Origin: Mobula hypostoma
Lineage: Eukaryota
DNA: 64,000 nucleotides
Assembly (NCBI RefSeq): GCF_963921235.1
Contig: NC_086097.1
Span: forward strand, 141,050,001 to 141,114,000
Direction of reading: 5' to 3'
Within the stretch, counting starts at the first letter, position 1; every line of letters starts with the position of its first letter. Positions 1 to 44,193 of this stretch are shown one piece after another. Below the pieces are notes generated by a model. The model saw only the letters and a list, made by a program, of their open reading frames with translations, did not search any database and had not been told where the DNA came from. A program made the translations under genes and the position numbers.

Positions 1-3000
1 AGACAGGAGGCTGGAGACTTCAGGTTAGCGGTGAAGCAGGAGGCTGGACACTTCCAGCTAGAGGCTCGGCAGGAGGCTGCAGTCTTCAGACTAGAGGCTC
101 GGCAGAAGGCTGCAGTCTTCAGGTTAGAGGTTAGTCAGGAGGCTGGAGTCTTCATGCTAGTGGCTAAGCAGGAGGCTGGAGTCTTCAGTCTGGAGGCTAG
201 AGGCTAGAGACTTGTAGCGAGGCTTGGTAGGAGGCTGGAAACTTGAGACGAGGCGAGGCTTGGCAGGAGCCGAGAGACTTGAGACTTCAGGAGAGGCTTG
301 GCAGGAGGTTGGAGACTTCAGGCTAGAGGCTAAGCAGGAGGCTGGAATTTTCAGGCTAGAGGCTAGGCAGAAGGCTGTAGTCTTCAGGCTAGAGGCTAGG
401 CAGGATGTTGGAGTCTTCAGGCCTGAAGCTAGGCAGCAGGCTGGAATCTTCAGGCTTCAGGCTAGGCGGAAGGCTGGAGCCTTCAGGATTGTGGCTAGGC
501 AGGAGACTGGAGTCTTCAGGCTTGAGGCTAGGCAGGAGGTTGGAGTCTTACGGATTGAGGCTAGGCAGGAGGCTGGAGTCTTCAGGCTTGAGGCTAGGCA
601 GGAGGCTGGAGTCTGCAGGCTTGAGACTAGGCAGGAGGCTGAAGTCTTTAGGTTTGATGCTCGGCAAGAGGATGGAGTCTTCAGGCTTGAGGCTAGAGGA
701 TAAAGATTTCAAGCGATGCTTCGTAGGAGGCTGGAGACTGGAGACGAGGCGATCCTTGGCAGTAGGGTGGAGACTTGAGAATTCAGGCGAGGCTTGACAG
801 GAGGCTAGCGACTTGAGACTTGAGACGAGGCTAGGCACGTGGCAGTACTCCAGGCTAGAGGCTATGCAGGCTGTTGGAGTCGTCTGGCTTGAGGTTAGGC
901 AGGAGGCTGGAGTCTTTAGGCTAGAGGCTAGAGGCTAGAGACTTGAAGCGAGGCTTCGTAGGAGGGTGGAGACTTTTGACGAGGCGAGGCTTGGCAGGAG
1001 GCTGGACTCTTGAGAATTGAGGCGAGGCTTGGCAGGAGGGTGGAGTCTTCAGGACTGAGGCTAGGGAGGAGGCTAGAGTCTTCAAGCTTGAGGCTAGGCA
1101 GGAGGCTGGAGTCTTCAGGTTAGCGGTGAAGCAGGAGGCTGGAGTCTTCCGGCTAGTGGCTAGGCAGGAGGCTGTGGTCTTCAGACTTCAGGCTAGGCTG
1201 GAGGCTAGAGTCTTCAGGCTGGAAACTAGGCAGGAGGCTGGCATTTTCAGGCTTGAGGGCAGGCTGGATACTGGAGTCATCAGACTTGAGGTTAGGCAGG
1301 AGGCTGGAGTCTTCATGCTAGTGGCTAAGCAGGAGGCTGGAGTCTTCAGTCTGGAGGCTAGAGGCTAGAGACTTGTAGCGAGGCTTGGTAGGAGGCTGGA
1401 AACTTGAGACGAGGAGAGGCTTGGCAGGAGCCGAGAGACGTGAGACTTCAGGAGAGGCTTGGCAGGAGGTTGGAGACTTCAGGCTAGAGGCTAAGCAGGA
1501 GGCTGGAATTTTCAGGCTAGAGGCTAGGCAGAAGGCTGTAGTCTTCAGGCTAGAGGCTAGGCAGGATGTTGGAGTCTTCAGGCCTGAAGCTAGGCAGCAG
1601 GCTGGAGTCTTCAGGCTTCAGGCTAGGCGGAAGGCTGGAGCCTTCAGGATTGTGGCTAGGCAGGAGGCTGGAGTCTTCAGGCTTGAAGCTAGGCAGGAGG
1701 CTGGAGTCTTAAGGATTGAGGCTAGGCAGGAGGATGGAGTCATCAGGCTTGAGGCTAGGCAGGAGGTTGGAGTCTTACGGATTGAGGCTAGGCAGGAGGC
1801 TGGAGTCTGCAGGCTTGAGACTAGGCAGGAGGCTGAAGTCTTTAGGTTTGATGCTCGGCAAGAGGATGGAGTCTTCAGGCTTGAGGCTAGAGGATAAAGA
1901 TTTCAAGCGATGCTTCGTAGGAGGCTGGAGACTGGAGACGAGGCGATCCTTGGCAGTAGGGTGGAGACTTGAGAATTCAGGCGAGGCTTGACAGGAGGCT
2001 AGCGACTTGAGACTTGAGACGAGGCTAGGCACGTGGCAGTACTCCAGGCTAGAGGCTATGCAGGCTGTTGGAGTCGTCTGGCTTGAAGTTAGGCAGGAGG
2101 CTGGAGTCTTTAGGCTAGAGGCTAGAGGCTAGAGACTTGAAGCGAGGCTTCGTAGGAGGCTGGAGACTTTTGACGAGGCGAGGCTTGGCAGGAGGATGGA
2201 CTCTTGAGAATTGAGGCGAGGCTTGGCAGGAGGGTGGAGTCTTCAGGACTGAGGCTAGGGAGGAGGCTAGAGTCTTCAAGCTTGAGGCTAGGCAGGAGGC
2301 TGGAGTCTTCAGGTTAGCGGTGAAGCAGGAGGCTGGAGTCTTCCGGCTAGTGGCTAGGCAGGAGGCTGTGGTCTTCAGACTTGAGGCTAGGCTGGAGGCT
2401 GGAGTCTTCAGGCTGGAAACTAGGCAGGAGGCTGGCATTTTCAGGCTTGAGGGTAGGCTGGATACTGGAGTCTTCAGAATTGATGTTAGGCAGAAGGCTT
2501 GAGGTTAGGCAGGAGGCTGGAGTCTTCAGGCTTGAGGCTAAGCAGGAGGTTTCAGCCTTCAAGCTCGAGGCTAGGCAGGAGGATGGAGTCGTCAGGATTG
2601 AGGCAGAGGCTGGGCAGGAGTCTGGAGTCTTCAGGCTTGAGGCTAGGCAGTAGGCTGCAGTCTTCAGGCTAGAGGCTAGGCAGGAGGATGCAGTCTTCAG
2701 GCTAGATGCTAGGCATGATGTTGGAGTCGTCAGGATTGAGGCTGGGCAGGAGGCTGGAGTCTTCAGGCTTGAGTCTAGGCAGGAGACCGGAGACTTCAGG
2801 TTTGTGGCTAGGCAGGAGGCTGTATTCTTCAGGCTAGAGGCTAAGCAGGAGGCTAGAGTCTTCAGGCTTGCGGCTAGGGAGTAGGCTGGTGTCTTCAGGC
2901 ATCAGACTGGGCAGGAATCTGAAGTCTTCCGGCTTGAGACTAGGCAGGAGGCTGGAGTCGTCAGGATTGAGGCTGATGCTAGGCAGGAGTCTGGACCTCT

Positions 3001-6000
3001 TCAGGCTAGAGGCTAGGCAGGAGGCTGGAGTCTTCAGGCGTGAGGCTAGGCAGGAGGCTGCAGTCTTCAGGCTAGAGGATAGGCAGGAGGCTGCAGTCTT
3101 CAGGCTAGATGCTAGGCATGATTGTGGAGTCTTCTGGATTGAGGCTAGGCAGGAGTCTGGAGTATTCAGGCATCCGGCTAGGCAGCGGGCAGCATTATTC
3201 AGGTTTCAGACTAGGCAGGAGGCTGGAATCTTCAGGCTAGATGTTAAGCACGAGGCTGGTGTCTTCAGGCATCAGGATAGGCACGAAGCTGGAGTCTTCA
3301 AGCTTGAGGCTAGGCAGGAGGCTGGAGTCTTCAGTCTTGAGGCTAAGCAGGAGTCTTGAGTCTTCAGACGAGGCAGGAGCCTGGGGTCTTCAAGCTTGAG
3401 TTTAGGCAGGAGGTTGGAGTCTTCAGGCTAGAGGCTAAGCAGGAGGCTGGAGTCTTCAGGCTAGAGGCTAGGCAGGAGGATGGAGTCTTCAGGCTAGAGG
3501 CTAGGCAGGATGTTGGAGTCTTCAGGCTAGAAGCTAGGCAGGAGGCTGGAGTCTTCAGGCGTGAGGCTCAGCAGGAGGCTGGAGTCTTCAGGCTTGAGGC
3601 TAGGCAGGAGGCTAGTGTCTTCAGGCATCAGGCTGGGCAGGAATCTGGAGTGTTCAGGCTTGAGGCTAAGCAGGAGGTTTGAGCCTTCAGGCTCGAGGCT
3701 AGGCAGGAGGATGGAGTCGTCAGGATTGAGGCTGAGGCTTGGCAGGAGTCTGGAGTCTTCAGGCTTGAGGCTAGGCAGTAGGCTGCAGTCTTCAGGCTAG
3801 AGGCTAGGCAGTAGGCTGCAGTCTTCAGGCTAGATGCTAGGCATGATGTTGGAGTCGTCAGGATTAGGCTAGGCAGGAGGCTGGAGTCTTCAGGCTTGAG
3901 GCTAGGCAGGAGACTGGAGACTTCAGGTTTGTGGCTAGGCAGGAGGCTGTATTCTTCAGGCTAGAGGCTCGGCAGGAGGGTAGAGTCTTCAGGCTTGAGG
4001 CTAGGCAGGAGGCTAGAGTCTTCAGGCTTGCGGCTAGGAAGGAGGCTGGTGTCTTCAGGCATCAGACTGGGCAGGAATCTGAAGTCTTCAGGCTTGAGAC
4101 TAAGCAGGAGGCTGGAGTCGTCAGGATTGAGGCTGATGCTAGGCAGGAGTCTGGACTCTTCAGGCTAGAGGCTAGGCAGGAGGCTTGAGTCTTCAAGCTT
4201 GAGGCTAGGCAGGAGGCTTGAGTCTTCAGGCGTGAGGCTAGGCAGGAGGCTGGAGTCTTCAGGCTAGAGGATAGGCAGGAGGCTGCAGTCTTCAGGCTAG
4301 ATGCTAGGCATGATTGTGGAGTCGTCCGGATTGAGGCTAGGCAGGAGTCTGGAGTATTCAGGCTTCAGGCTAGGCAGGAGGCTGGAGTTTTCAGGCTTGA
4401 GGCTAGGCAGGAGGCTGGAATCTTCAGGCTAGAGGCTAAGCACGAGGCTGGTGTCTTCAGGCATCAGGATAGGCACGAAGCTGGAGTCTTCAAGCTTGAG
4501 GCTAGGCAGGAGGCTGGAGTCTTCAGGCGTGAGGCTAGGCAGGAGGCTGGAGACTTCAGGCTTGAGGCTAAGCAGGAGTCTTGAGTCTTCAGACTAGGCA
4601 GGAGGCTGGAGTCTTCAAGCTAGAGGTTAGGCAGGAGGCTGGAGTCTTCAGGCTAGAGGCTAGGCAGGATGTTGGAGTCTTCAGGCCTGAAGCTAGGCAG
4701 GAGGCTGGAGTCTTCAGGCTTGAGGCTAGGCAGGAGGCTGGAGTCTTCAGGATTGAGGCTAGGCAGGAGGCTGGAGTCTTCAGGCTTGAGGCTAGGCAGG
4801 AGGCTGGAGTCTTCAGGCTTGAGGCTAGGCAGGAGGCTGGAGTCTTCAGGCTTGAGGTTAGGCAGGAGGCTGGAGTCTTCAGGCTTGAGGCTAGGCAGGA
4901 GGCTGGAGTCTTCAGGCTTGAGGCTTAGCAGGAGGCTGGAGTCTTCAGGCTTGAGGCTAGGCAGGAGGCTGGTGTCTTCAGGCATCAGGCTGGGCAGGAA
5001 TCTGGAGTCTTCAGGCTTGAGGCTAGGCAGGAGGCTGGAGTCGTCAGGATTGAGGCTGATGCTAGGCAGGAGTCTGGACTCTTCAGGCTTGAGGCTAGGC
5101 AGGAGGCTTGAGTCTTCAAGCTTGAGGCTAGGCAGGAGGCTGGAGTCTTCAATCTAGAGTTTAGGCAGGAGGCTGGAGTCTTCAGGCTAGAGGCTAGGCA
5201 GGAGGGTAGAGTCTTCAGGCTAGATGCTAGGCATGATTGTGGAGTCGTCAGGATTGAGGCTAGGCAGGAGTCTGGAGTATTCAGGCTTGAGGCTAGGCAG
5301 GAGGCTGGAATCTTCAGACTTCAGGTTAGGCAGCAGGCTGGAATCTTCAGGCTAAAGGCTAAGCACGAGGCTGGTGTTTTCAGGCATCAGGATAGGCAGG
5401 ATGCTGGAGTCTTCAAGCTTGAGGCTAGGCAGGAGGCTGGAGTCTTCAGGCGTGAGGCTAGGCAGGAGGCTGGAGACTTCAGGCTTGAGGCTAGGCAGGA
5501 GGCTGGAGTCTTTAGGCTTGAGGCTAGGCAGGAGACTGGACTCTTCAGGCTTGAGGCTAGGCAGGAGGCTGGAATCTTCAGGCTTGAGGCTAAGCAGGAG
5601 GTTTGAGCCTTCAGGCTCGAGGCTAGGCAGGAGGATGGAGTCGTCAGGATTGAGGCTGAGGCTGGGCAGGAGTCTGGAGTCTTCAGGCTAGAGGCTAGGC
5701 AGGAGGCTGCAGTCTTCAGGCTAGATGCTAGGCATGATGTTGGAGTCGTCAGGATTGAGGCTAGGCAGGAGGCTGGAGTCTTCAGGCTTGAGGCTAGGCA
5801 GGAGACTGGAGACTTCAGGTTTGTGGCTAGGCAGGAGGCTGTATTCTTCAGGCTAGAGGCTAAGCAGGAGTGTAGAGTCTTCAGGCTTGAGGCTAGGAAG
5901 GAGGCTGGTGTCTTCAGGCATCAGACTGGGCAGGAATCTGAAGTCTTCAGGCTTGAGACTAAGCAGGAGGCTAGAGTCGTCAGGATTGAGGCTGATGCTA

Positions 6001-9000
6001 GGCAGGAGTCTGGAGTCTTCAGGCTTGAGGCTAGGCAGGAGGCTGGAGTCTTCAGGCTTGAGGCTAGGCAGGAGGCTGCAGTCTTCAGGCTAGAGGCTAG
6101 GCAGGAGGCTGCAGTCTTCAGGCTAGATGCTAGGCATGATTGTGGAGTCGTCAGGATTGAGGCTAGGCAGGAGTCTGGAGTATTCAGGCATCCGGCTAGG
6201 CAGCGGGCAGCATTATTCAGGTTTCAGACTAGGCAGAAGGCTGGAATCTTCAGGCTAGATGTTAAGCACGAGGCTGGTGTCTTCAGGCATCAGGATAGGC
6301 ACGAAGCTGGAGTCTTCAAGCTTGAGGCAAGGCAGGAGGTTGGAGTCTTCAGGCTAGAGGCTAAGCAGGAGGCTGGAGTCTTCAGGCTAGAGGCTAGGCA
6401 GGAGGGTAGAGTCTTCAGGACTGAAGCTAGGCAGGAGGCTGGAGTCTTCAGGTTAGAGGTGAAGCAGGAGTCTGGAGTCTTCAGGCTAGAGGCTAGGCAG
6501 GAGGCTGGAGTCTTCAGGCCTGAAGCTAGGCAGGAGGCTAGAGTCTTCAGGCTAGAAGCTAGGCTGGAGGCTGGAGTCTTCAGTCTTGAACCGAAGTAGG
6601 AGGCTTGAGTCTTCAGGCTACAGGATAGGCAGGAGGCTGCAGTCTTCAGGCTAGATGCTAGGCATGATTGTGGAGTCGTCAGGATTGAGGCTAGGCAGGA
6701 GTCTGGAGTATTCAGGCATCAGGCTAGGCAGCGGGCAGCATTATTCAGGTTTCAGGCTAGGCAGGAGGCTGGAATCTTCAGGCTAGAGGCTAAGCACGAG
6801 GCTGGTGTCTTCAGGCATCAGGATAGGCACGAAGCTGGAGTCTTCAAGCTTGAGGCTAGGCAGGAGGCTGGAGTCTTCAGGCGTGAGGCTAGGCAGGAGG
6901 ATGGAGACTTCAGTCTTGAGGCTAAGCAGGAGTCTTGAGTCTTCAGACTAGGCAGGAGGCTGGAGTCTTCAAGCTTGAGGTTAGGCAGGAGGTTGGAATC
7001 TTCAGGCTTGAGGCTAAGCAGGAGGTTTGAGCCTTCAAGCTCGAGGCTAGGCAGGAGGATGGAGTCGTCAGGATTGAGGCTGAGGCTGGGCAGGAGTCTG
7101 GAGTCTTCAGGCTAGAGGCCAGGCAGGAGGATGCAGTCTTCAGGCTAGATGCTAGGCATGATGTTGGAGTCGTCAGGATTGAGGCTGGGCAGGAGGCTGG
7201 AGTCTTCAGGCTTGAGTCTAGGCAGGAGACCGGAGACTTCAGGTTTGTGGCTAGGCAGGAGGCTGTATTCTTCAGGCTAGAGGCTAAGCAGGAGGCTAGA
7301 GTCTTCAGGCTTGCGGCTAGGAAGTAGGCTGGTGTCTTCAGGCATCAGACTGGGCAGGAATCTGAAGTCTTCCGGCTTGAGACTAGGCAGGAGGCTGGAG
7401 TCGTCAGGATTGAGGCTGATGCTAGGCAGGAGTCTGGACCTCTTCAGGCTAGAGGCTAGGCAGGAGGCTGGAGTCTTCAGGCGTGAGGCTAGGCAGGAGG
7501 CTGCAGTCTTCAGGCTAGAGGATAGGCAGGAGGCTGCAGTCTTCAGGCTAGATGCTAGGCATGATTGTGGAGTCGTCAGGATTGAGGCTAGGCAGGAGTC
7601 TGGAGTATTCAGGCTTCAGGCTAGGCAGCAGGCTGGATTATTCAGGTTTCAGGCTAGGCAGGAGGCTGGAATCATCAGGTTAGAGGCTAAGCACGAGGCT
7701 GGTGTCTTCAGGCATCAGGATAGGCACGAAGCTGGAGTCTTCAAGCTTCAGGCTAGGCAGGAGGCTGGAGTATTCAGGCTTGAGGCTAAGCAGGAGTCTT
7801 GAGTCTTCAGACTAGGCAGGAGGCTGGAGTCTTCAAGCTAGAGGTTAGGCAGGAGGTTGGAGTCTTCAGGCTAGAGGCTAAGCAGGAGGCTGGAGTTTTC
7901 AGGCTAGAGGCTAGGCAGAAGGCTGTAGTCTTCAGGCTAGAGGCTAGGCAGGATGTTGGAGTCTTCAGGCCTGAAGCTAGGCAGGAGGCTGGAGTCTTCA
8001 GGTTAGAGGCTAGGCAGGAGTCTGGAGTCTTCAGGCTTGAGGCTAGGCAGGAGGCTGGAGTCTTCAGGCTTGAGGCTAGGCAGGAGGCTAGTGTCTTCAG
8101 GCATCAGGCTGGGCAGGAATCTGGAGTGTTCAGGCTTGAGGCTAAGCAGGAGGTTTGAGCCTTCAGACTAGGCAGGAGGCTGGAGTCTTCAAGCTTGAGG
8201 CTAGGCAGGAGGCTGGAGTCTTCAGGCTTGAGGCTAAGCAGGAGGTTTGAGCCTTCAGGCTCGAGGCTAGGCAGGAGGATGGAGTCGTCAGGATTGAGGC
8301 TGAGGCTAGGCAGGAGTCTGGAGTCTTCAGGCTTGAGGCTAGGCAGTAGGCTGCAGTCTTCAGGCTAGAGGCTAGGCAGGAGGCTGCAGTCTTCAGGCTA
8401 GATGCTAGGCATGATGTTGGAGTCGTCAGGATTGAGGCTAGGCAGGAGGCTGGAGTCTTCAGGCTTGAGGCTAGGCAGGAGACTGGAGACTTCAGGTTTG
8501 TGGCTAGGCAGGAGGCTGTATTCTTCAGGCTATAGGCTAGGCAGGAGTGTAGAGTCTTCAGGCTTGAGGCTAGGAAGGAGGCTAGTGTCTTCAGGCATCA
8601 GACTGGGCAGGAATCTGAAGTCTTCAGGCTTGAGACTAAGCAGGAGGCTGGAGTCGTCAGGATTGAGGCTGATGCTAGGCAGGAGTCTGGACTCTTCAGG
8701 CTAGAGGCTAGGCAGGAGGCTGGAGTCTTCAGGCGTGAGGCTAGGCAGGAGGCTGCAGTCTTCAGGCTACAGGATAGGCAGGAGGCTGCAGTCTTCAGGC
8801 TAGATGCTAGGCATGAGGCTGGAGTCTTCAGGCGTGAGGCTAGGCAGGAGTCTGGAGTATTCAGGCTTCAGGCTAGGCAGCAGGCTGGATTATTCAGGTT
8901 TCAGGCTAGGCAGGAGGCTGGAATATTCAGGCTAGTGGCTAAGCACGAGGCTGGTGTCTTCAGGCATCAGGATAGGCACGAAGCTGGAGTCTTCAAGCTT

Positions 9001-12000: not shown

Positions 12001-15000
12001 AGGCATCAGACTGGGCAGGAATCTGAAGTCTTCAGGCTTGAGACTAAGCAGGAGGCTGGAGTCGTCAGGATTGAGGCTGATGCTAGGCAGGAGTCTGGAC
12101 TCTTCAGGCTTGAGGCTAGGCAGGAGGCTTGAGTCTTCAGGCTTGAGGCTAGGCAGGAGGCTGCAGTCTTCAGGCTAGATGCTAGGCATGATTGTGGAGT
12201 CGTCAGGATTGAGGCTAGGCAGGAGTCTGGAGTATTCAGGCTTCAGGCTAGGCAGGAGGCTGGATTATTCAGGTTTGAGGCTAAGCACGAGGCTGGTGTC
12301 TTCAGGCATCAGGATAGGCACGAAGCTGGAGTCTTCAAGCTTGAGGCTAGGCAGGAGGCTGGAGTCTTCAATCTAGAGTTTAGGCAGGAGGCTGGAGTCT
12401 TCAGGCTAGAGGCTAGGCAGGAGGCTAGAGTCTTCAGGTTTGAGGCTAGGCAGGAGGCTGGAGACTTCAGGTTAGCGGTGAAGCAGGAGGCTGGACACTT
12501 CCGGCTAGAGGCTAGGCAGGAGGCTGGAGTCTTCAGACTTGAGGCTAGGCAGGAGGCTGGAGTCTTCAGGCTTGAGGCTAGGCAGGAGGCTGGAGTCTTC
12601 AGGCTTGAGGCTAGGCAGGAGGCTTGAGTCTTCAGGCTTGAGGCTAGGCAGGAGGCTGGAGTCTTTAGGCTAGAGGTTAGGCAGGAGGCTGGAGTCTTCA
12701 TGCTAGTGGCTAAGCAGGAGGCTGGAGTCTTCAGTCTGGAGGCTAGAGGCTAGAGACTTGTAGCGAGGCTTGGTAGGAGGCTGGAAACTTGAGACGAGGC
12801 GAGGCTTGGCAGGAGCCGAGAGACTTGAGACTTCAGGCGAGGCTTGGCAGGAGGTTGGAGACTTCAGGACTGAGGCTAGGCAGGAGGCTGGAGTCTTCAG
12901 GCTTCAGGCTAGGCAGGAGGCTGGAGTCTTCAGGATTGAGGCTAGGCAGGAGGCTGGAGTCTTCAGGCTTGAAGCTAGGCAGGAGGCTGGAGTCTTTAGG
13001 ATTGAGGCTAGGCAGGAGGATGGAGTCATCAGGCTTGAGGCTAGGCAGGATGTTGGAGTCTTAAGGATTGAGGCTAGGCAGGAGGCTGGAGTCTTCAGGC
13101 TTGAGGCTAGGCAGGAGGCTGGAGTCTTCAGGCTTGAGGCTAGGCAGGAGGCTGGAGTCTTTAGGTTTGAGGCTAGGCAGGAGGCTGGAGTCTTCAGGCT
13201 TGAGGCTAGAGGCTAAAGATTTCAAGCGATGCTTCGTAGGAGGCTGGAGACTGGAGACGAGGCGATCCTTGGCAGTAGGGTGGAGACTTGAGAATTCAGG
13301 CGAGGCTTGACAGGAGGCTAGCGACTTGAGACTTGAGACGAGGCTAGGCACGTGGCAGTACTCCAGGCTAGAGGCTATGCAGGCTGTTGGAGTCGTCTGG
13401 CTTGAGGTTAGGCAGGAGGCTGGAGTCTTTAGGGTAGAGGCTAGAGGCTAGAGACATGAAGCGAGGCTTCGTAGGAGGGTGGAGACTTTTGACGAGGCGA
13501 GACTTGGCAGGAGGCTGGACTCTTGAGAATTGAGGCGAGGCTTGGCAGGAGGGTGGAGTCTTCAGGACTGAGGCTAGGGAGGAGGCTAGAGTCTTCAAGC
13601 TTGAGGCTAGGCAGGAGGCTGGAGTCTTCAGGTTATCGGTGAAGCAGGAGGCTGGAGTCTTCCGGCTAGTGGTTAGGCAGCAGGCTGTGGTCTTCAGACT
13701 TGAGGCTAGGCAGGAGGCTGGAGTCTTCAGGCTGGAAACTAGGCAGGAGGCTGGCATTTTCAGGCTTGAGGGTAGGCTGGATACTGGAGTCTTCATACTT
13801 GAGGTTAGGCAGGAGGCTGGAGTCTTCAGGCTTGAGGCTAAGCAGGAGGCTGGAGTCTTCAGGCTGGAAGCTAGGCAGGAGGCTGGCATTTTCAGGCTTG
13901 AGGGTAGGCTGGATACTGGAGTCTTCAGGATTGAGGCTAGGCAGGAGGCTGGAGTCTTCAGGCTTGAGGCTAGGCAGGAGGCTGGAGTCTTCAGGCTAGA
14001 GGTTAGGCAGGAGGCTGGAGTCTTCATGCTAGTGGCTAAGCAGGAGGCTGGAGTCTTCAGGCTTGAAGCTAGGCATGAGGCTGGAGTCTTAAGGATTGAG
14101 GCTAGGCAGGAGGATGGAGTCATCAGGCTTGAGGCTAGGCAGGAGGTTGGAGTCTTACGGATTGAGGCTAGGCAGGAGGCTGGAGTCTTCAGGCTTGAGG
14201 CTAGAGGATAAAGATTTCAAGCGATGCTTCGTAGGAGGCTGGAGACTGGAGACGAGGCGATCCTTGGCAGTAGGGTGGAGACTTGAGAATTCAGGCGAGG
14301 CTTGACAGGAGGCTAGCGATTTGAGACTTGAGACGAGGCTAGGCACGTGGCAGTACTCCAGGCTAGAGGCTATGCAGGCTGTTGGAGTCGTCTGGCTTGA
14401 AGTTAGGCAGGAGGCTGGAGTCTTTAGGCTAGAGGCAAGAGGCTACAGACTTGAAGCGAGGCTTCGTAGGAGGGTGGAGACTTTTGACGAGGCGAGGCTT
14501 GGCAGGAGGCTGGACTCTTGAGAATTGAGGCGAGGCTTGGCAGGAGGGTAGAGTCTTCAGGACTGAGGCTAGGGAGGAACCTAGAGTCTTCAAGCTTGAG
14601 GCTAGGCAGGAGGCTGGAGTCTTCAGGTTATCGGTGAAGAAGGAGGCTGGAGTCTTTCGGCTAGTGGCTAGGCAGCAGGCTGTGGTCTTCAGACTTGAGG
14701 CTAGGCTGGAGGCTGGAGTCTTCAGGCTGGAAACTAGGCAGGAGGCTGGCATTTTCAGGCTTGAGGGTAGGCCGGATACTGGAGTCTTCATACTTGAGGT
14801 TAGGCAGGAGGCTGGAGTCTTCACGTTTGAGGCTAGGCAGGAGGCTGGAGTCTTCAGGCTTGAGGCTAAGCAGGAGGCTGGAGTCTTCAGGCTGGAAGCT
14901 AGGCAGGAGGCTGGCATTTTCAGGCTTGAGGGTAGGCAGGAGGCTGGAGTCTTCAGGATTGAGGCTAGGCAGGAGGCTGGAGTCTTCAGGCTTGAGGCTA

Positions 15001-18000
15001 GGCAGGAGGCTGGAGACTTCAGGCTTGAGGCTAAGCAGGATGTTGGAGTCTTCAGACTTGAGGTTAGGCAGGCGGCTGGAGTATTCACGTTTGTGGCTAG
15101 GCAGGAGGCTGGAGTCTTCAGGTTTGAGGCTAAACAGGAGGCTGGAGTCTTCAGGCTTGAGGCTAGGCAGGAGGCTAGTGTCTTCAGGCATCAGGCTGGG
15201 CAGGAATCTGGAGTGTTCAGGCTTGAGGCTAGGCAGGAGACTGGACTCTTCAGGCTTGAGGCTAGGCAGGAGGCTGGAATCTTCAGACTTGAGGTTAGGC
15301 AGAAGGCTTGAGTCTTCAAGCTTGAGGCTAGGCAGGAGGCTGGAGTCTTCAGGCTTGAGGCTAAGCAGGAGGTTTGAGCCTTCAGGCTCGAGGCTAGGCA
15401 GGAGGATGGAGTCGTCAGGATTGAGGCTGAGGCTGGGCAGGAGTCTGGAGTCTTCAGGCTTGAGGCTAGGCAGTAGGCTGCAGTCTTCAGGCTACAGGCT
15501 AGGCAGGAGGCTGCATTCTTCAGGCTAGATGCTAGGCATGATGTTGGAGTCGTCAGGAATGAGGCTAGGCAGGAGGCTGGAGTCTTCAGGCTTGAGGCTA
15601 GGCAGGAGACCGGAGACTTCAGGTTTGTGGCTAGGCAGGAGGCTGTATTCTTCAGGCTAGAGGCTAGGCAGGAGGCTAGAGTCTTCAGCCTTGCGGCTAG
15701 GAAGGAGGCTGGTGTCTTCAGGCATCAGACTGGGCAGGAATCTGAAGTCCTCAGGCTTGAGACTAAGCAGGAGGCTGGAGTCGTCAGGATTGAGGCTGAT
15801 GCTAGGCAGGAGTCTGGACTCTTCAGGCTAGAGGCTAGGCAGGAGGCTTGAGTCTTCAAACTTGAGGCTAGGCAGGAGGCTGCAGTCTTCAGGCTAGATG
15901 CTAGACATGATTGTGGAGTCGTCAGGATTGAGGCTAGGCAGGAGTCTGGAGTATTCAGGCATCAGGCTAGGCAGCGGGCAGCATTATTCAGGTTTCAGGC
16001 TAGGCACGAGGCTGGTGTCTTCAGGCATCAGGATAGGCACGAAGCTGGAGTCTTCAAGCTTGAGGCTAGGCAGGAGGTTGGAGTCTTCAGGCTAGAGGCT
16101 AAGCAGGAGGCTGGAGTTTTCAGGCTAGAGGCTAGGCAGGAGGCTAGAGTCTTCAGGTTTGAGGCTAGGCAGGAGGCTGGAGACTTCAGGTTAGCGGTGA
16201 AGCAGGAGGCTGGACACTTCCGGCTAGAGGCTAGGCAGGAGGCTGGAGTCTTCAGACTTGAGGCTAGGCTGGAGGCTGGAGTCTTCAGGCTAGAAGCTAG
16301 GCTGGAGGCTGGAGTCTTCAGTCTTGAACCTAAGTAGGAGGCTTGAGTCTTCAGGCTTGAGGCTAGGCAGGAGGCTGGAGTCTTCAGGCTAGAGGTTAGG
16401 CAGGAGGCTGGAGTCTTCATGCTAGTGGCTAAGCAGGAGGCTGGAGTCTTCAGTCTGGAGGCTAGAGGCTAGAGACTTGTAGCGAGGCTTGGTAGGAGGC
16501 TGGAAACTTGAGACGAGGCGAGGCTTGGCAGGAGCCGAGAGACTTGAGACTTCAGGCGAGGCTTGGCAGGAGGTTGGAGACTTCAGGATTGAGTGTAGGC
16601 AGCAGGCTGGAGTCTTCAGGCTTCAGGCTAGGCGGAAGGCTGGAGCCTTCAGGATTGTGGCTAGGCAGGAGGCTGGAGTCTTCAGGCTTGAAGCTAGGCA
16701 GGAGGCTGGAGTCTTAAGGATTGAGGCTAGGCAGGAGGATGGAGTCATCAGGCTTGAGGCTAGGCAGGAGGTTGGAGTCTTACGGATTGAGGCTAGGCAG
16801 GAGGCTGGAGTCTTCAGGCTTGAGGCTAGGCAGGAGGCTGGAGTCTTCAGGCTTGAGACTAGGCAGGAGGCTGAAGTCTTTAGGTTTGATGCTCGGCAAG
16901 AGGATGGAGTCTTCAGGCTTGAGGCTAGAGGATAAAGATTTCAAGCGATGCTTCGTAGGAGGCTGGAGACTGGAGACGAGGCGATCCTTGGCAGTAGGGT
17001 GGAGACTTGAGAATTCAGGCGAGGCTTGACAGGAGGCTAGCGACTTGAGACTTGAGACGAGGCTAGGCACGTGGCAGTACTCCAGGCTAGAGGCTATGCA
17101 GGCTGTTGGAGTCGTCTGGCTTGAGGTTAGGCAGGAGGCTGGAGTCTTTAGGCTAGAGGCTAGGCAGGAGGCTGGAGTCTTCAGGCTTGAGGCTAGGCAG
17201 GAGGGTGGAGACTTTTGACGAGGCGAGGCTTGGCAGGAGGCTGGACTCTTGAGAATTGAGGCGAGGCTTGGCAGGAGGGTGGAGTCTTCAGGACTGAGGC
17301 TAGGGAGGAGGCTAGAGTCTTCAAGCTTGAGGCTAGGCAGGAGGCTGGAGTCTTCAGGTTATCGGTGAAGCAGGAGGCTGGAGTCTTCCGGCTAGTGGCT
17401 AGGCAGCAGGCTGTGGTCTTCAGACTTGAGGCTAGGCTGGAGGCTGGAGTCTTCAGGCTGGAAACTAGGCAGGAGGCTGGCATTTTCAGGCTTGAGGGTA
17501 GGCTGGATACTGGAGTCTTCATACTTGAGGTTAGGCAGGAGGCTGGAGTCTTCAGGCTTGAGGCTAAGCAGGAGGCTGGAGTCTTCAGGCTGGAAGCTAG
17601 GCAGGAGGCTGGCATTTTCAGGCTTGAGGGTAGGCTGGATACTGGAATCTTCAGAATTGAGGTTAGGCAGAAGGCTTGAGGCTAGGCAGGAGGCTGGAGT
17701 CTTCAGGCTAGAGGTTAGGCAGGAGGCTGGAGTCTTCATGCTAGTGGCTAAGCAGGAGGCTGGAGTCTTCAGGCTTGAAGCTAGGCATGAGGCTGGAGTC
17801 TTAAGGATTGAGGCTAGGCAGGAGGATGGAGTCATCAGGCTTGAGGCTAGGCAGGAGGTTGGAGTCTTACGGATTGAGGCTAGGCAGGAGGCTGGAGTCT
17901 TCAGGCTTGAGGCTAGAGGATAAAGATTTCAAGCGATGCTTCGTAGGAGGCTGGAGACTGGAGACGAGGCGATCCTTGGCAGTAGGGTGGAGACTTGAGA

Positions 18001-21000
18001 ATTCAGGCGAGGCTTGACAGGAGGCTAGCGATTTGAGACTTGAGACGAGGCTAGGCACGTGGCAGTACTCCAGGCTAGAGGCTATGCAGGCTGTTGGAGT
18101 CGTCTGGCTTGAAGTTAGGCAGGAGGCTGGAGTCTTTAGGCTAGAGGCAAGAGGCTACAGACTTGAAGCGAGGCTTCGTAGGAGGGTGGAGACTTTTGAC
18201 GAGGCGAGGCTTGGCAGGAGGCTGGACTCTTGAGAATTGAGGCGAGGCTTGGCAGGAGGGTAGAGTCTTCAGGACTGAGGCTAGGGAGGAACCTTGAGTC
18301 TTCAAGCTTGAGGCTAGGCAGGAGGCTGGAGTCTTCAGGTTATCGGTGAAGAAGGAGGCTGGAGTCTTTCGGCTAGTGGCTAGGCAGCAGGCTGTGGTCT
18401 TCAGACTTGAGGCTAGGCTGGAGGCTGGAGTCTTCAGGCTGGAAACTAGGCAGGAGGCTGGCATTTTCAGGCTTGAGGGTAGGCCGGATACTGGAGTCTT
18501 CAGGCTTGAGGTTAGGCAGGAGGCTGGAGTCTTCAGGTTTGAGGCTAGGCAGGAGGCTGGAGGCTTCAGGCTTGAGGCTAAGCAGGAGGCTGGAGTCTTC
18601 AGGCTGGAAGCTAGGCAGGAGGCTGGCATTTTCAGGCTTGAGGGTAGGCTGGATACTGGAAACTTCAGAATTGAGGTTAGGTAGAAGGCTTGAGGCTAGG
18701 CAGGAGGCTGGAGACTTCAGGCTTGAGGCTAGGCAGGAGGTTGGAGTCTTCAGACTTGAGGTTAGGCAGGAGGCTGGAGTCTTCAGTCTAGAAGCTAGGC
18801 AGGAGGCTGGAGTCTTCAGGACTGAGGCTAGGCAGGAGGCTGGAGTCTTTAGGCTAGAGGCTAGGCAGGAGGCTAGTGTCTTCAGGCATCAGGCTGGGCA
18901 GGAATCTGGAGTGTTCAGGCTTGAGGCAAGGCAGGAGACTGGACTCTTCAGGCTTGAGGCTAGGCAGGAGGCTGGAGTCTTCAGACTTGAGGTTAGGCAG
19001 AAGGCTGGAGTCTTCAAGCTTGAGGCTAGGCAGGAGGCTGGAGTCTTCAGGCTTGAGGATAAGCAGGATGTTTAAGCCTTCAGGCTCGAGGCTAGGCAGG
19101 AGGATGGAGTCAGGATTGAGGCTGAGGCTTGGCAGGAGGCTGGAGTCTTCAGGCTTGAGGCTAGGCAGTAGGACTTGAGACTTCAGGCGAGGCTTGGCAG
19201 GAGGCTGGAGACTTGAGGCGAGGCTTGGCAGGAGGTTGGAGACTTCAGGATTGAGTGTAGGCAGGAGGCTGGAGTCTTCAGGCTTGAGGCTAGGCAGGAG
19301 GCTGGAGTCTTCAGACTTGAGGCTAGGTTGGAGGCTGGAGTCTTCAGGATAGAGGTTAGGCAGGAGGCTGGAGTCTTCATGCTAGAGGCTAAGCAGGAGG
19401 CTGGAGTCTTCAGGCTAGAGGCTAGGCAGGAGGCTGGAGTCTTCAGGCTAGAGGCTTGGTAGGAGGCTGGAAACTTGAGACGAGGCAAGGCTTGGCAGGA
19501 GCCTAGAGACTTGAGACTTCAGGCGAGGCTTGGCAGGAGGCTGGAGACTTGAGGCGAGGCTTGGCAGGAGGTTGGAGACTTCAGGATTGAGTGTAGGCAG
19601 GAGGCTAGTGTCTTCAGGCATCAGGCTGGGCAGGAATCTGGAGTGTTCAGGCTTGAGGCTAGGCAGGAGGATGGAGTCTTTAGGCTTGAGGCTAGGCAGG
19701 AGACTGGACTCTTCAGGCTTGAGGTTAGGCAGAAGGTTTGAGTCTTCAAGCTTGAGGCTCGGCAGGAAGCTGCAGTCTTCAGGCTACAGGCTAGGCAGGA
19801 GGCTGCATTCTTCAGGCTAGATGCTAGGCATGATGTTGGAGTCGTCAGGAATGAGGCTAGGCAGGAGGCTGGAGTCTTCAGGCTTGAGGCTAGGCAGGAG
19901 ACCGGAGACTTCAGGTTTGTGGCTAGGCAGGAGGCTGGAGTCTTCAGGCTAGAGGCTAGGCAGGAGGCTAGAGTCTTCAGGCTTGAGGCTAGGCAGGAGG
20001 CTGGTGTCTTCAGGCATCAGGCTGGGCAGGAATCTGGAGTCTTCAGGCTTGAGGCTAGGCAGGGGGCTGGAGTCTTCAGGCGTGAGGCTAGGCAGGAGGC
20101 TGGAGTCTTCAGGCTTGAGGCTAGGCAGGAGGCTGGAGTCTTCAGACTTGAGGCTAGGCTGGAGGCTGGAGTCTTCAGGCTAGAGGCTAGAGCAGGAGGT
20201 GGAGTCGTCAGGATTGAGGCTAGGCAGGAGTCTGGAGGATTGAGGCTGAGGCTAGGCAGGAGGCTGGAATCTTCAGGCTAGAGGCTAAGCACGAGGCTGG
20301 TGTTTTCAGGCATCAGGATAGGCACGAAGCTGGAGTCTTCAAGCTTGAGGCTAGGCAGGAGGCTGGAGTCTTCAATCTAGAGTTTAGGCAGGAGGCTGGA
20401 GTCTTCAGGCTAGAGGCTAGGCAGGAGGCTGGAGTCTTCAGGATTGAGGCTAGGCAGGAGGCTGGAGACTTCAGGTTAGCGGTGAAGCAGGAGGCTGGAC
20501 ACTTCCGGCTAGAGGCTAGGCAGGAGGCTGGAGTCTTCAGACTTGAGGCTAGGCTGGAGGCTGGAGTCTTCAGGCTAGAAGCTAGGCTGGAGGCTGGAGT
20601 CTTCAGGCTTGAAGCTAGGCAGGAGGCTGGAGTCTTCAGGCTTGAGGCTAGGTAGGAGGCTGGAGTCTTCAGGCTAGAGGTTAGGCAGGAGGCTGGAGTC
20701 TTCATGCTAGTGGCTAACCAGGAGGCTGGAGTCTTCAGTCTGGAGGCTAGAGGCTAGAGACTTGAAGCGAGGCTTGGTAGGAGGCTGGAAACTTGAGACG
20801 AGGCAAGGCTTGGCAGGAGCCTAGAGACTTGAGACTTCAGGCTTGAGACTAAGTAGGAGGCTTGAGTCTTCAGGCTCAGGCTAGGCAAGAGGCTGGAGTC
20901 GTCAGGCTAGGGGTTAGGCAGGAGGCTGGAGTCTTCAGGCTAGAAGCTAGGCAGGAGGCTGGAGACTTCAGGCTTGAGACTAAGTAGGAGGCTTGAGTCT

Positions 21001-23150
21001 TCAGGCTAGAGGTTAGGCAGGAGGCTGGAGTCTTCATGCTAGTGGCTAACCAGGAGGCTGGAGTCTTCAGTCTGGAGGCTAAAGGCTAGAGACTTGAAGC
21101 GAGGCTTGGTAGGAGGCTGGAAACTTGAGAAGAGGCGAGGCTTGGCAGGAGGTTGGAGACTTCAGGATTGAGTGTAGGCAGGAGGCTGGAGTCTTCAGGC
21201 TTGAGGCTAGGCAGGAGGCTGGAGTCTTCAGGCTTGAAGCTAGGCAGGAGGCTAGTGTCTTCAGGCATCAGGCTGGGCAGGAATCTGGAGTGTTCAGGCT
21301 TGAGGCTAGGCAGGAGGCTGGAGTCTTTAGGCTTGAGGCTAGGCAGGAGACTGGACTCTTCAGGCTTGAGGCTAGGCAGGAGGCTGGAATCTTCAGACTT
21401 GAGGTTAGGCAGAAGGCTTGAGTCTTCAAGCTTGAGGCTAGGCAGGAGGCTGGAGTCTTCATGCTTGAGGCTAAGCAGGAGGTATGAGCCTTCAGGCTCG
21501 AGGCTAGGCAGGAGGATGGAGTCGTCAGGATTGAGGCTGAGGCTAGGCAGGAGGCTGGAATCTTCAGGCTAGAGGCTAAGCACGAGGCTGGTGTTTTCAG
21601 GCATCAGGATAGGCACGAAGCTGGAGTCTTCAAGCTTGAGGCTAGGCAGGGGGCTGGAGTTTTCAGGCGTGAGGCTAGGCAGGAGGCTGGAGTCTTCAGG
21701 ATTGAGGCTAGGCAGGAGGCTGGAGTCTTCAGGCGTGAGGCAGTGCAGGAGGCTGGAGACTTCAGGCTTGAGGCTAAGATGGAGTCTTGAGTCTTCAGAC
21801 TTGAGGTTAGGGAGGAGGCTGGAGTCTTCAGGATTGAGGCTAGGCAGGAGGCTGGAGTCTTCAGGTTTGTGGCTTGGCAGGAGGCTGGCGTCTTCAGGTT
21901 TGTGGCTAGGCTGGAGGATGGAGTCTTCAGGCTAGAAGCTAGGCAGTAGGCTGTAGTCTTCACGCTAGAGGCTAGGCAGGATGTTGGAGTCGTCAGGCTT
22001 GAGGTTAGGCAGCAGGCTGGAGTCTTCACGCTTGAGGTTAGGGAGGAGGCTGCAGTCTTCAGGATTGAGGCTAGGCAGGAGGCTGGAGACTTCAGGCTTG
22101 AGGCTAGGCAGGAGGCTGGTGTCTTGAGGTTTCTGGCTAGGCAGGAGGCTGGCATCTTCAGGTTTGTGGCTAGGCAGGAGGCTGGAGTCTTCAGGCTTGA
22201 GGCTAGGCAGGAGGCTAGATTCTTCAGGCTTGAGGCTAGGCAGGAGGCTGGTGTCTTTAGGCTTGAGGCTAGGCAGGAGGTTGCAGTCTTCAGGCTTGAG
22301 GCTTGGTAGGAGGCTGGAGTCTTTAGGCTTGAGGCTAGGCAGGAGGCTGGAGTCTTCAGGTTAGAGGTTAGGCAGGGGGCTGGAGTCTTCCGGCTCGAGG
22401 CTAGGCAGGAGGCTGGAGTCTTCAGGTTATAGGTGAGGCAGGGGGCTGGAGTCTTCCGGCTCGAGGCTAGGCAGGAGGCTGGAATCTTCAGACTTGAAGC
22501 TAGGCTGTAGGCTGGAGTCTTCAGACTTGAGGTTAGGCAGGAGGCTGGAGTCTTCAGGGTTGAGGCTAGGCAGGAGGCTGGAGTCTTCAGGCTCGAAGTT
22601 AGGCAGGTGGCTGGAGTCCAGGCTTGAGGCTAAGCAGGAGGCTGGAGTCTTGAGGCTTGTGACTAGGCAGGAGGCTGGAGTCTTCAGGCTAGAAGTTAGG
22701 CAGGTGGCTGGAGTCCAGGCTTGAGGCTAAGCAGGAGGCTGGAGTCTTGAGGCTTGTGACTAGGCAGGAGGCTGGAGTCTTCAGGCTAGAAGTTAGGCAG
22801 GAGGCTGGACTCTTCAGGCTAGAGGCTAAGCAGGAGGCTGGAGTCTTCAGGCTAGTGGTTAGGCAGGACATTGGCGTCGTGAGGCTTGAGCTTAGGCAGG
22901 AGGCTGGAATCTTCAGTCTAGAGGGTAGAGGCTAGAGACTTGAAGCGAGGCTTCGTAGGAGGCTGGAGACTCGAGACGAGGCGAGGCTGGGCAGGAGGTT
23001 GGAGACCTCAGACTTGAGGCTAGGCTTGGCAAGAGCCTGGAGACCTGAGACTTGAGGCCTGGCTTGGCAGGAGGCTGGGGACTTGAGACTTGGGGCCTGG
23101 CTTGGCAGGAGGCTGGGGACTTGAGACTTGAGGTGAGTCGAGGCAGGAGA
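1..23150. repeat. Giant 33-bp minisatellite/satellite array (about 700 monomers in window, continuing off the left edge) with higher-order duplications
   Basis: Consensus GAGGCTAGGCAGGAGGCTGGAGTCTTCAGGCTT repeats throughout. The ORF track shows 11-aa periodicity (RLEARQEAGVF, GLRLGRRLESS, SLKTPASCLAS). Diverged spacer cassettes are interspersed. Confidence 0.98.
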
Positions 23151-23929
23151 CTGGAAGCTCCTCCTGGGCAGGGTGCGGAACTCCACCCGACGGAGGCAAG
23201 GGACAGGAAGGGACAGAACCAACCACAGCTAACGGCAAGACGGCCTGGCTCACCCGACAACGGCAGGGGACAGGAAGGGGCAGAACCAACCGCAGGTAAC
23301 GGCAAGACGGCCTGGCTCACCCGACAACGGCAGGGGACAGGAAGGGGCAGAACCAACCGCAGGTAATGGCAAGACGGCCTGGCTGACCCGACAGAGGCAA
23401 GGGACAGGAAGTGACAGAACCAACCACAGGTAACAGCAAGACGACCTGGCTTACCTGACGGAGGCAAGGGACAGGAAGGGACAGAACCAACCGCAGGTAA
23501 CAGCAAGATGGCCTGGTTTACCTGACGGAGGCAAGGGACAGGAAGGGAGCTGGTACGGGCTGGCTCCAGGACAAGACAGCAAGACAAGGCAAGGCTTCAG
23601 GCAATGCAAGGCAAGACAGAACTTCAGGCGCGGCGAGAGTTACTGGCAAGGCAAGGCAGGGCTTCAGGTATTGCAAGGCGAAACGAGAACTTGAGGCAAG
23701 GCGAGGAAACAGAAAGCAGTGGGAAGGGATACAAGGAGTAAGAACAAGAACAATCCAGCAGCCAGGCCCTGGTCTCTGAAGGTATTTATGCAGCCATCCC
23801 CAACGAGCATCAGCTAACTCAATTAGAGCTCAACAAGAACAGAAACAGGGTAGACAGGAAAACCTGGAGCAAGGGTCGATGGACCGGACCGTGAACCGGA
23901 TTACGGTCTTCACGGACTGGACCATGACA
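23151..23929 (-). mobile_element. Terminal part of an LTR (Gypsy-like) that appears to host the satellite array
   Basis: Ends ...ACCATGACA at 23929 (TGTCATGGT on the minus strand). GGTATTTAT (TATA-like on minus) at 23781-23789. Same terminus and motif spacing as the TSD-flanked LTR at 44194-45459. Confidence 0.75.
23184..23548. repeat. 67-bp tandem repeat, 5 full copies plus a partial, inside the LTR
   Basis: Unit cacccgacggaggcaagggacaggaagggacagaacc... starts at 23184, 23251, 23318, 23385, 23452 and 23519. Confidence 0.92.
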
Positions 23930-24561
23930 ACAGGATTTTGCAAATTTGATTGGGAGAAGCTGTTTGCAGGTATGGGAAGTGGCAGGCGTCTGAAAGTGTA
24001 ATAGGAAGGGTTCAGACCATAAGACATGAGAGTAGAAATTCGGCCATTTGGTCCATCGAGTCTGCCCGAATCCATCATAGTTGATTTATTACCCCCATCA
24101 ATGTCATTTTTCTGACCTCCCAGTAACCTTTGATTCCCTTTCTAATCAAGAACCTATCAATCTTTGCATTAAATATACCCAGTTATATTGGAAGCCAAGG
24201 CTGACAGAATTATGGATTATAGTTGATGAGGGATATTGAGGGTTTCTTCAGGGAAAAAGGAGAATATATGTCAAGTATTGTCTGTTGTGATCAAGTGAAT
24301 CCCCTGAACTGTACAAAAGATATAGGAGTACACTTAAGAGGAAAATCAGGAGGACAAATTCTTCCGATCGTTTTGACGGATAAGGCAAAGGGGAAACCTA
24401 AGGTGTTCTATAAGAATATCAAGAGGAAAAAGGTAACCAGAACGATTGTGGAGTTACACGAGATAGGGCAAGAACTTAAATGAATATTTATTATCTGTAA
24501 TTACTGTAGAGAAGACTGGAAGCTAAGAAGTTCATAGCAGAGAAAATGATGTCTTCAAATA

Positions 24562-43485: not shown

Positions 43486-44193
43486 TTATATCCATCCTTC
43501 GAAAGATGTGACACCATCCGGCCCTCAGACTAGTATGAATCCCGCAAATGCCCCACTAAACTACATATAAAATACCAAAGTACAGTTTGTACAATACCCA
43601 GTATTATAAACCCAATAGTCATCTCCAGTGTACTACAGTAGTCTCCAGCTTCCCTCCAGAGTTTAATAGGACTGGCTCCCACTTAACCGTATGCACCGAC
43701 TGTCAGAGAAGTCGGTGAGCAATGTTCCCCAACTCATCAGGAGTGTAGGTGCAGCATTTCTGACCAGTAAGGGCCCAAGTGCCAATTTTTTGTGCAAACA
43801 GGTAATCAAAGTCCATCCATATCAGTTTCTGAGACAGTCTGAATATATCATACTGGGAAAGGCTATCATCCAAAATCTTTCTGCCTCCTTGACATCTCTC
43901 CTACTCCTCTGATCAACGTGGACTGGGTGTTCATCAAGGGAACTGAGGTGGTGTATGCACCCCAAATACCCCAGACAGTAGCAGCCAGAACACCTGGAAG
44001 GGAGCCATGGGTAGGTCCAGGAGCCGCATATCCAGTAAGTGACATTCAGTATCCAGGGAGTGTCCATCTTCATAGCAACATTCGCTGTAGACACAGTCAT
44101 CCCAGGATACTGTTCCTGCTCACACTCGCCATTATCCGTGATTGAACTTGTGCCTATCACACTACCTACACCAACATTCCTTTCCCTTCCCTA

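Follow-up and report, generated by a model that had tools for sequence, protein, structure and literature searches.

The window analysed here (64,000 bp, C1:141050001-141114000) opens inside a tandem array of 33-bp units that runs off its left edge, and the question that it raises is where such an array comes from. A sequence-only reading of the window had proposed that the array grew inside a single LTR, from a small VNTR of that LTR, and had predicted that the other LTR terminus would be found to the left, preceded by the target-site duplication (TSD) ACAGG. Its description of the right edge, in which the 33-bp array passes into 67-bp repeats and then into a unique stretch ending ACCATGACA at 23929, was matched by TRF and by the sequence itself; ACAGG follows directly, and the inner motif GGTATTTAT finishes 140 bp inside the terminus, as had been stated. 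The parts of this region are given below, with strands taken from the leader, the ATG and the purine tract of two-LTR relatives.

1..22928, minus strand (putative sense of the element): portion of the 33-bp array that falls within the window (TRF, 4-22928: 693 copies, 78% matches)
22935..23155, minus strand: zone of a 38-bp variant at the edge of the array (TRF; compact relatives have this zone too)
23184..23548, minus strand: 67-bp repeat, 5.4 copies (TRF; a normal part of the LTR, relatives having typically 2-3.5 and up to 6.4 copies)
23579..23705, minus strand: second repeat, of 67/68 bp, 1.9 copies (TRF; a normal part of the LTR)
23781..23789, minus strand: GGTATTTAT (ATAAATACC on the minus strand), a TATA-like motif with a putative promoter role
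23925..23929, minus strand: LTR terminus (TGACA on the plus strand), the start of the LTR in the sense of the element
23930..23934, no strand: TSD ACAGG, matching the ACAGG ahead of the far terminus

Lying downstream of the TATA-like motif, the VNTR would belong to R/U5 of the LTR, as read from the sequence. The long open frames of the array (up to 341 codons) exist because its 11-codon unit is without stops in several frames, and a coding role for them was rejected.

To the left of the window we fetched 120 kb, which brings the sequence examined to 184 kb in total. The predicted terminus was found there. ACAGGTGTC occurs once in these 184 kb, at the left junction, 28,697 bp before the first base of the window, where the sequence reads ACAGG followed by TGTCGTAAGG, 250 bp past the left end of the array (left terminus and ACAGG at L033:1298-1307). 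The giant LTR delimited by the two termini (C1:141021303-141073929) measures 52,627 bp with no N in the assembled sequence, its exact length being that of the assembly because the array is spanned by no long read. It is bracketed as ACAGG/TGTCG...TGACA/ACAGG, with a perfect 5-bp TSD on both sides and termini of the TG...CA type (TGTCA...TGACA in its relatives); the odds of a 5-bp TSD match by chance are about 1 in 1,000, and this match had been predicted beforehand. Between the termini there are a single left arm and a single right arm, 81-90% and 82-90% identical, respectively, to those of compact relatives, and an array of 51.4 kb (1,553 copies by TRF), all head-to-tail in one orientation, which reaches 28.4 kb beyond the left edge of the window. 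Motif-free gaps longer than 150 bp are absent, and the giant contains neither an interior nor a second LTR, which makes it a solo LTR.

Some 250 bp separate the seed repeat from one terminus of the LTR that contains it, and the family to which the giant belongs is mostly of modest size. A 22-bp left-terminus motif has 312 exact matches in the genome. Among the first 30 of these by position, 24 copies end within 882-1,298 bp and carry 0-5 unit cores, their TSDs agreeing at 5/5 positions in 16, at 4/5 in 5 and at fewer in 3; the other six are four copies of about 1.6-2.0 kb, one without a right terminus in the locus, and the giant of the window, included by construction. A search with the right arm gave 3,298 first-look candidates, of which 40 were scored. 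Among relatives whose arms diverge by 9-12%, solo LTRs of 0.9-1.3 kb with 0-5 unit cores predominate. Intermediate lengths exist as well (2.0, 2.0, 3.4, 3.8, 5.0 and 6.7 kb), the four longest being copies chosen for their long arrays, with TSDs of 4/5 or 5/5. The left-terminus family is clustered on C1, where 12 of 19 matches lie at 89-142 Mb, among the matches listed.

Taken with four further loci described below, we consider it highly probable that the array is part of a single 52.6-kb LTR, that its internal 33-bp repeat expanded in place after an insertion of ordinary size, that LTR-LTR recombination left only a solo LTR of the element, and that the other loci had a like history. In the giant of the window, as at the four further loci, the array sits between LTR ends with an intact TSD, so that in situ growth of the element's own short repeat is the likely origin of each. 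The proposal of an LTR-internal VNTR grown in place thus stands, both termini and the TSD being present; its scale, put at about 100-fold, was corrected to an element about 50 times the usual length, in which 0-5 cores became about 1,500 units.

The same reading had pointed to a solo LTR 20 kb to the right of the giant as a compact relative preserving the state before expansion. Its features are as follows.

44189..44193, no strand: left copy of the TSD CCCTA
44194..45459, minus strand: 1,266-bp solo LTR belonging to a distant subfamily, its arms 33% from those of the giant
44480..44725, minus strand: 29-bp VNTR, 8.6 copies (TRF), homologous to the 33-mer
45460..45464, no strand: right copy of the TSD CCCTA

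That this is a TSD-flanked solo LTR with the inner motif 126 bp inside its end, as claimed, proved correct. The right ends of the two LTRs align, as had been anticipated (23550-23929 against 45000-45459: score 128, against 30.2±4.8 and a maximum of 50 in 500 shuffles), and so do the 29-bp unit, of which eight copies had been counted, and the 33-bp unit (score 47, against 15.9±5.5, with 2 of 5000 shuffles reaching 47). The suggested place of this LTR in the history of the giant did not hold up. In a comparison of 91 LTRs over 460 bp of their arms, its distance is 33% to the giant and 31% to the compact copies; from the giant to its five nearest compact copies the distance is 8.8-9.4% (median 11.6%). 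With arms so divergent and a 29-bp unit, the 44194 LTR is a cousin and not a precursor, and we rejected it as the direct 'before' state. On sequence grounds, the true compact state is that of the solo LTRs of the giant's own subfamily elsewhere in the genome, many of which carry the same 33-mer. Since the repeat is so common, the distance of 20 kb between the two LTRs is unremarkable.

The interior of the giant's array is diverse. Parsing yielded 1,482 units of 490 kinds, which differ by 10.7% from the commonest unit and by 18.2% from one another. Elsewhere, pairwise unit divergence is 0.6-7.9% in eight short arrays, 14.7% and 17.7% in two arrays of 3-7 kb, and 13.4% in a second giant, on C5. 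The terminal branches of the arms measure 0.083 for the window giant and 0.055 for the C5 giant, with a median of 0.047 over 85 other copies. Per lineage the monomers have diverged by about 9%, a value near the arm branch of 0.083; if mutation is about as fast in monomers as in arms, this suggests an onset of growth around the time of insertion. With a k-mer diagonal method we detected 101 duplicated segments of at least 400 bp at irregular offsets, with no single fixed higher-order unit. Block duplications of 0.5-2.8 kb are nested and mostly 95-100% identical, the longest (1.9-2.8 kb) at 97-100%, and the longest exact repeat within the array is 1,296 bp. Blocks that are 99-100% identical suggest recent turnover. 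A private 36-mer variant, all 19 genome matches of which fall in this array, is spread from 0.6 kb past its left end to 2.7 kb short of its right end.

Near-identical blocks are also what would be seen if the length of the array were largely an assembly artefact, a modest VNTR having been inflated by false duplication. A partner at 99% identity or more was found for 16 of 51 sampled 495-bp windows, nearly all of them left of the window under study, and false duplications are possible among these; identity is 99.6-100% between copies of the 2.4- and 2.8-kb blocks. However, the remaining 35 have no such partner, the number of distinct units is high and exact repeats are limited in length as given above, and collapsing every 99% block would probably leave well over half of the array. 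Assembled short-read contigs from four runs of one sample, which may be the source of the assembly, bear on the same point. A contig in all four runs spans the left junction without difference (L033:969-1350, across the left TSD); at the right junction there is no bridging contig among the matches listed, and contigs of organisms B and C contain sequence of the family, with no junction bridged among the matches listed. Among the 32 longest of more than 4,000 pieces, 10 come from flanks or junctions and 22 from the array; over these 22, contig depth, a crude measure, tracks assembled copy number (Spearman 0.93). With the left-flank contigs as reference, the ratio of depth to copy number is 0.8-4.1, with a median of 2.0; it is at least 1.0 for 18 of the 22 pieces and 0.79 at the lowest. 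Some right-flank contigs are about twice as deep as the left-flank ones, which probably represent a single haplotype; the median ratio therefore fits two alleles of equal copy number, and the scatter may come from allelic length differences between the sequenced animal and the assembly. Gross over-assembly is unlikely, and an array whose length is mostly artefact we consider very improbable.

Growth within the LTR is also what the other giants show. These are loci that were followed up and not a census of the genome; in all five, that of the window included, both termini are present together with a perfect 5-bp TSD of their own.

C5:86027237-86185560: giant LTR, 158,324 bp, TSD GAAAG
C1:66068792-66237534: giant LTR, 168,743 bp with one 200-N gap, TSD CATGC
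C1:107594604-107649260: giant LTR, 54,657 bp, TSD GCTAA
C1:90568111-90604583: giant LTR, 36,473 bp, TSD GAAAC

The C5 giant was found through a dimer pattern with 348 matches, among the 100 matches listed. All five lie in the interior of large chromosomes, at 66-141 of 256 Mb on C1 and at 86 of 232 Mb on C5. One related array, of about 7 kb in two parts on C71, departs from this pattern: a left arm is present, but the 16 kb past the array hold no right arm. The dominant periods of the five giants are 33; 33 with 59; 31 and 24; 7, 26 and 33; and 37, and any two of them have 0-0.7% of sampled 100-mers in common. With this little in common and with private variants, the arrays lack the homogenisation across loci that defines concerted evolution. 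A transfer of the window array from the C5 giant, with which it has 0.3% of 100-mers in common, was rejected.

The capture of an older, independent satellite, pasted or converted into the LTR, or from which the short repeat of the family was itself taken, is a formal alternative named for such arrays by Vondrak et al. (PMC7004042). Exact modal 33-mers number 1,679 genome-wide, about 730 of them in the two 33-mer giants, and the arrays that hold them were inspected in part. The window array, however, sits exactly where compact copies have their VNTR and passes gradually into the 38- and 67-bp zones that they also have, its private variant is limited to this locus, and the five giants differ in their units or mixes of units, yet all lie between LTR arms. 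We regard capture as extremely unlikely.

Expansion in place at separate loci agrees with the relationships of the arms. The tree of LTR arms is star-like, and the five giants span two subfamilies, four being in one and the 36-kb giant on the side of the 44194 LTR, from which it is 27% distant. Forcing the four giants of one subfamily into a single clade lowers the log-likelihood by 39.8 (FastTree, two distant LTRs left out, given without a formal test). We infer that runaway growth of the same seed region took place separately at the four other loci, with a unit of its own at each. In the tree, the 169-kb giant is sister to the 55-kb one (SH-like 0.90, arms 4.5% apart), and a 6.7-kb copy belongs to the same clade of five members, a relationship which would be expected had the giants descended from one already expanded copy by retrotransposition or duplication. 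Against such descent, their TSDs and flanks are different, the 169-kb and 55-kb arrays have no sampled 50-mers in common, the arms of the window giant are 11-12.5% from those of the other three giants of its subfamily, and reverse transcription of an LTR of 50-170 kb would be unlikely. Descent of the arrays themselves from one expanded copy is largely ruled out, and we give this explanation practically no weight. It is possible that a sublineage inherited a modestly longer seed, and the clade shared with the 6.7-kb copy hints at an inherited propensity.

Growth in place would have followed the insertion of an ordinary-sized, non-coding LTR retrotransposon at the C1 locus. Recombination between its LTRs likely reduced the element to a solo LTR, either before or after expansion set in. 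Expansion of the 33-bp repeat may have started near the time of insertion, given that monomer divergence is about that of the arms, with units duplicated singly at first and later as kilobase blocks. Growth would have continued through unequal exchange or replication template switching, both likely routes of duplication that fit the data equally. The arrays are most likely neutral by-products. Their persistence, as distinct from their origin, could instead be due to selection for centromere-like or heterochromatin-organising blocks; all five giants are interior to large chromosomes, and retrotransposon-derived arrays of plants can be centromeric, according to passages of 10.64898/2026.09.17.752431. 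Yet four of the giants are on one chromosome, tens of megabases apart and with unrelated block structure, and the LTR family itself is concentrated on that chromosome (12/19 C1 matches at 89-142 Mb, among the matches listed), and we think that selection of this kind is unlikely.

A broader claim, which we put forward tentatively and with more doubt than confidence, is that this LTR lineage is a recurrent generator of satellites. A G-rich seed of 7-bp GAGGCT-like subunits would be present at hundreds or thousands of dated insertion sites and would run away, at a rate that can be measured, to 35-170 kb; how prone a copy is to do so would depend on its seed sublineage or its chromosomal position, and lengths would still be changing between alleles. 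If this is true, the family amounts to a natural experiment, with replicates, on the passage from minisatellite to satellite in a vertebrate, since the birth of each array is bounded by its own TSD.

The growth of element-borne tandem repeats into satellites is an already established route, and the giants work alike. In Lathyrus sativus, short tandem arrays in the dispersed LTR retrotransposon Ogre occasionally grow long, and the lineage, non-autonomous carriers included, yields several different satellites (passages of PMC7004042). As with Ogre, one unit is found in the giant's family both as short arrays in dispersed elements and as long arrays. The Ogre repeats, however, are in the 3' UTR of the interior, at individual loci that were not addressable according to the authors (passages of PMC7004042), whereas the giants are inside solo LTRs of an animal and are bracketed by termini and TSD. 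In the mouse, the tandem repeats Ms6-hm and Hm-2 are expanded in MaLR LTRs, and in the eel a satellite derives from a Gypsy LTR (PMC9659126, PMC6947457 and PMC12628747). The mouse case is alike in being a repeat expansion inside a vertebrate retrotransposon-like LTR. Its units (Ms6-hm/Hm-2, Kelly 1994) are reportedly very short and its arrays roughly ten kb or less; compared with these sizes, the giants have units of 26-59 bp and lengths of 36-169 kb, at five loci in two subfamilies.

A human minisatellite at 16q24.1 has imperfect 33-bp units and a polymorphic length, covers 8.7 kb and has MLT1D on both sides; it is one locus, and the available passages of its description (PMC4411736) show neither a TSD nor an LTR origin of the unit. 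Satellites of squamate SINEs arise from an internal segment, reach up to 1,000 units and have many independent origins, and minor variants keep both termini of the element (passages of PMC10702118). In that case the element is a SINE and long loci grow uniform and common between loci, whereas the giants are LTRs, internally more diverse than short arrays and private to their locus. In plant centromeres there are arrays of transposon sub-sequences (passages of 10.64898/2026.09.17.752431). In a search of the open literature, neither this family nor any solo LTR tens of kilobases long and flanked by a TSD was listed. What is new is the bracketing locus by locus, by both termini and a TSD, repeatedly and at 36-169 kb; the giants further differ from known cases in lying within solo LTRs of a non-coding element, in size and in growing without homogenisation between loci.

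Claims that a satellite came from a transposon mostly rest on similarity, and the reverse, capture, is hard to exclude. At each giant locus the starting point (a 1-kb element), the boundaries and the relative age (arm divergence) can be read; unexpanded copies, in the hundreds, serve as controls, and the lengths form a series graded between 1 and 169 kb. It can therefore be tested whether seed sequence, age or chromosomal position is behind the runaway, and whether loci are homogenised. A single retroelement insertion can add 50-170 kb after it has inserted, DNA that annotation would split into 'LTR' and 'satellite'.

The LTR also occurs in pairs, and these inform on the nature of the element. 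Twelve pairs, 6.3-12.2% divergent, flank short interiors. Among 30 two-LTR loci fetched (of 82 matches), the interior is 158-183 bp long in 25 and 1,154 bp in one, and the upstream LTR end was not found in 4. Read on the strand that is minus in the window, the interior has a 17-nt leader that begins GAAC, not TGG, then an ATG with an ORF stub of 12-96 codons, and at its end a G-rich run directly before TGTCA in the sense of the element, a polypurine tract ahead of the 3' LTR. An interior of this size with an ORF stub makes the element non-autonomous and, judged by its sequence, TRIM-like with LTRs of about 1 kb. Two LTRs, a short non-coding interior and a purine tract are features of TRIMs, but TRIM LTRs measure about 100-250 bp. 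Complete LTRs of this family mostly measure 0.85-1.3 kb and most copies are solo LTRs, hence we did not file it as a TRIM.

A coding partner carrying this LTR was not found among 4 matches of the leader pattern, nor among 30 of 150 DUF4939 loci. Two DUF4939 loci resemble the family: L217, a DUF4939 match, has a similar LTR end and a 16-nt leader followed by MDSA (17 nt and MDPA in the giant's family), and in L222 the tail before the LTR aligns over 44 nt with the 3' end of the interior. This resemblance is at most suggestive of a Gypsy affinity. Apart from solo and paired LTRs, a tandem form with three LTRs occurs (L008).

Short VNTR arrays of 10-30 interior units (genome pieces L166, L167, L028 and L136) show an internal divergence of only 0.6-2.3%, which is exceeded by the divergence of the LTR arms across the family (median 9.6%). 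The small VNTR expansions therefore look recent and ongoing. At the other end of the size range, in the giant LTR on contig C5 (pieces L044-L054 and L063-L068), mismatches per unit relative to the commonest unit drop from about 2.6-3.3 to 1.7-2.1 toward the end bearing the TATA-like motif. Unlike in the C5 giant, a comparison of units along the array of the window's giant revealed no gradient of divergence from the commonest unit.

The 33-bp unit of the window's array (positions 1-22928) corresponds to 11 codons and leaves several frames without stops; as a consequence, open frames of up to 341 codons are found in the array on both strands. These long frames could be misleading for gene callers. 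The CpG observed/expected ratio of the same array is 0.17. To its right, the flank of the giant (positions 24000-25500) consists, as judged by contig depth, mostly of very high-copy repeat, amid which a single-copy stretch is found near 24232-24415.

Of the 19 places on C1 that match the left-terminus motif exactly, 12 lie within 89-142 Mb, one fifth of the chromosome, as do three of the four C1 giants. Elsewhere on C1 (C1:78767679-78796722, L244-L249), a unit of about 3.6 kb is present in about six tandem copies, each containing a junction of LTR end, short interior and LTR start of this family. This tandem is a block amplification carrying part of the family's element, and is a second route from this element to tandem DNA.

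Several other copies depart from the simple LTR. The one on C71 (C71:60530000-60542419; L058, L059, L250) starts with a left arm, after which the array runs for 1.2 kb, is interrupted for 4.5 kb and resumes for another 6.1 kb before giving way to unrelated sequence; no right arm was found within 16 kb, and the locus is a truncated or rearranged LTR copy. L008 is a tandem of three LTRs with a short interior between each, resembling tandem TRIM arrays. In L060 (C9:71567585-71572919), flanked by ACTCC/ACTGC, two copies lie in opposite orientation, one within the VNTR of the other, into which it appears to have inserted. Finally, L005 and L021, 23 kb apart on C66, are a local segmental duplication, since the TSD (GACAT) and flanks are the same in both; one of the two LTRs is 23 bp longer than the other.
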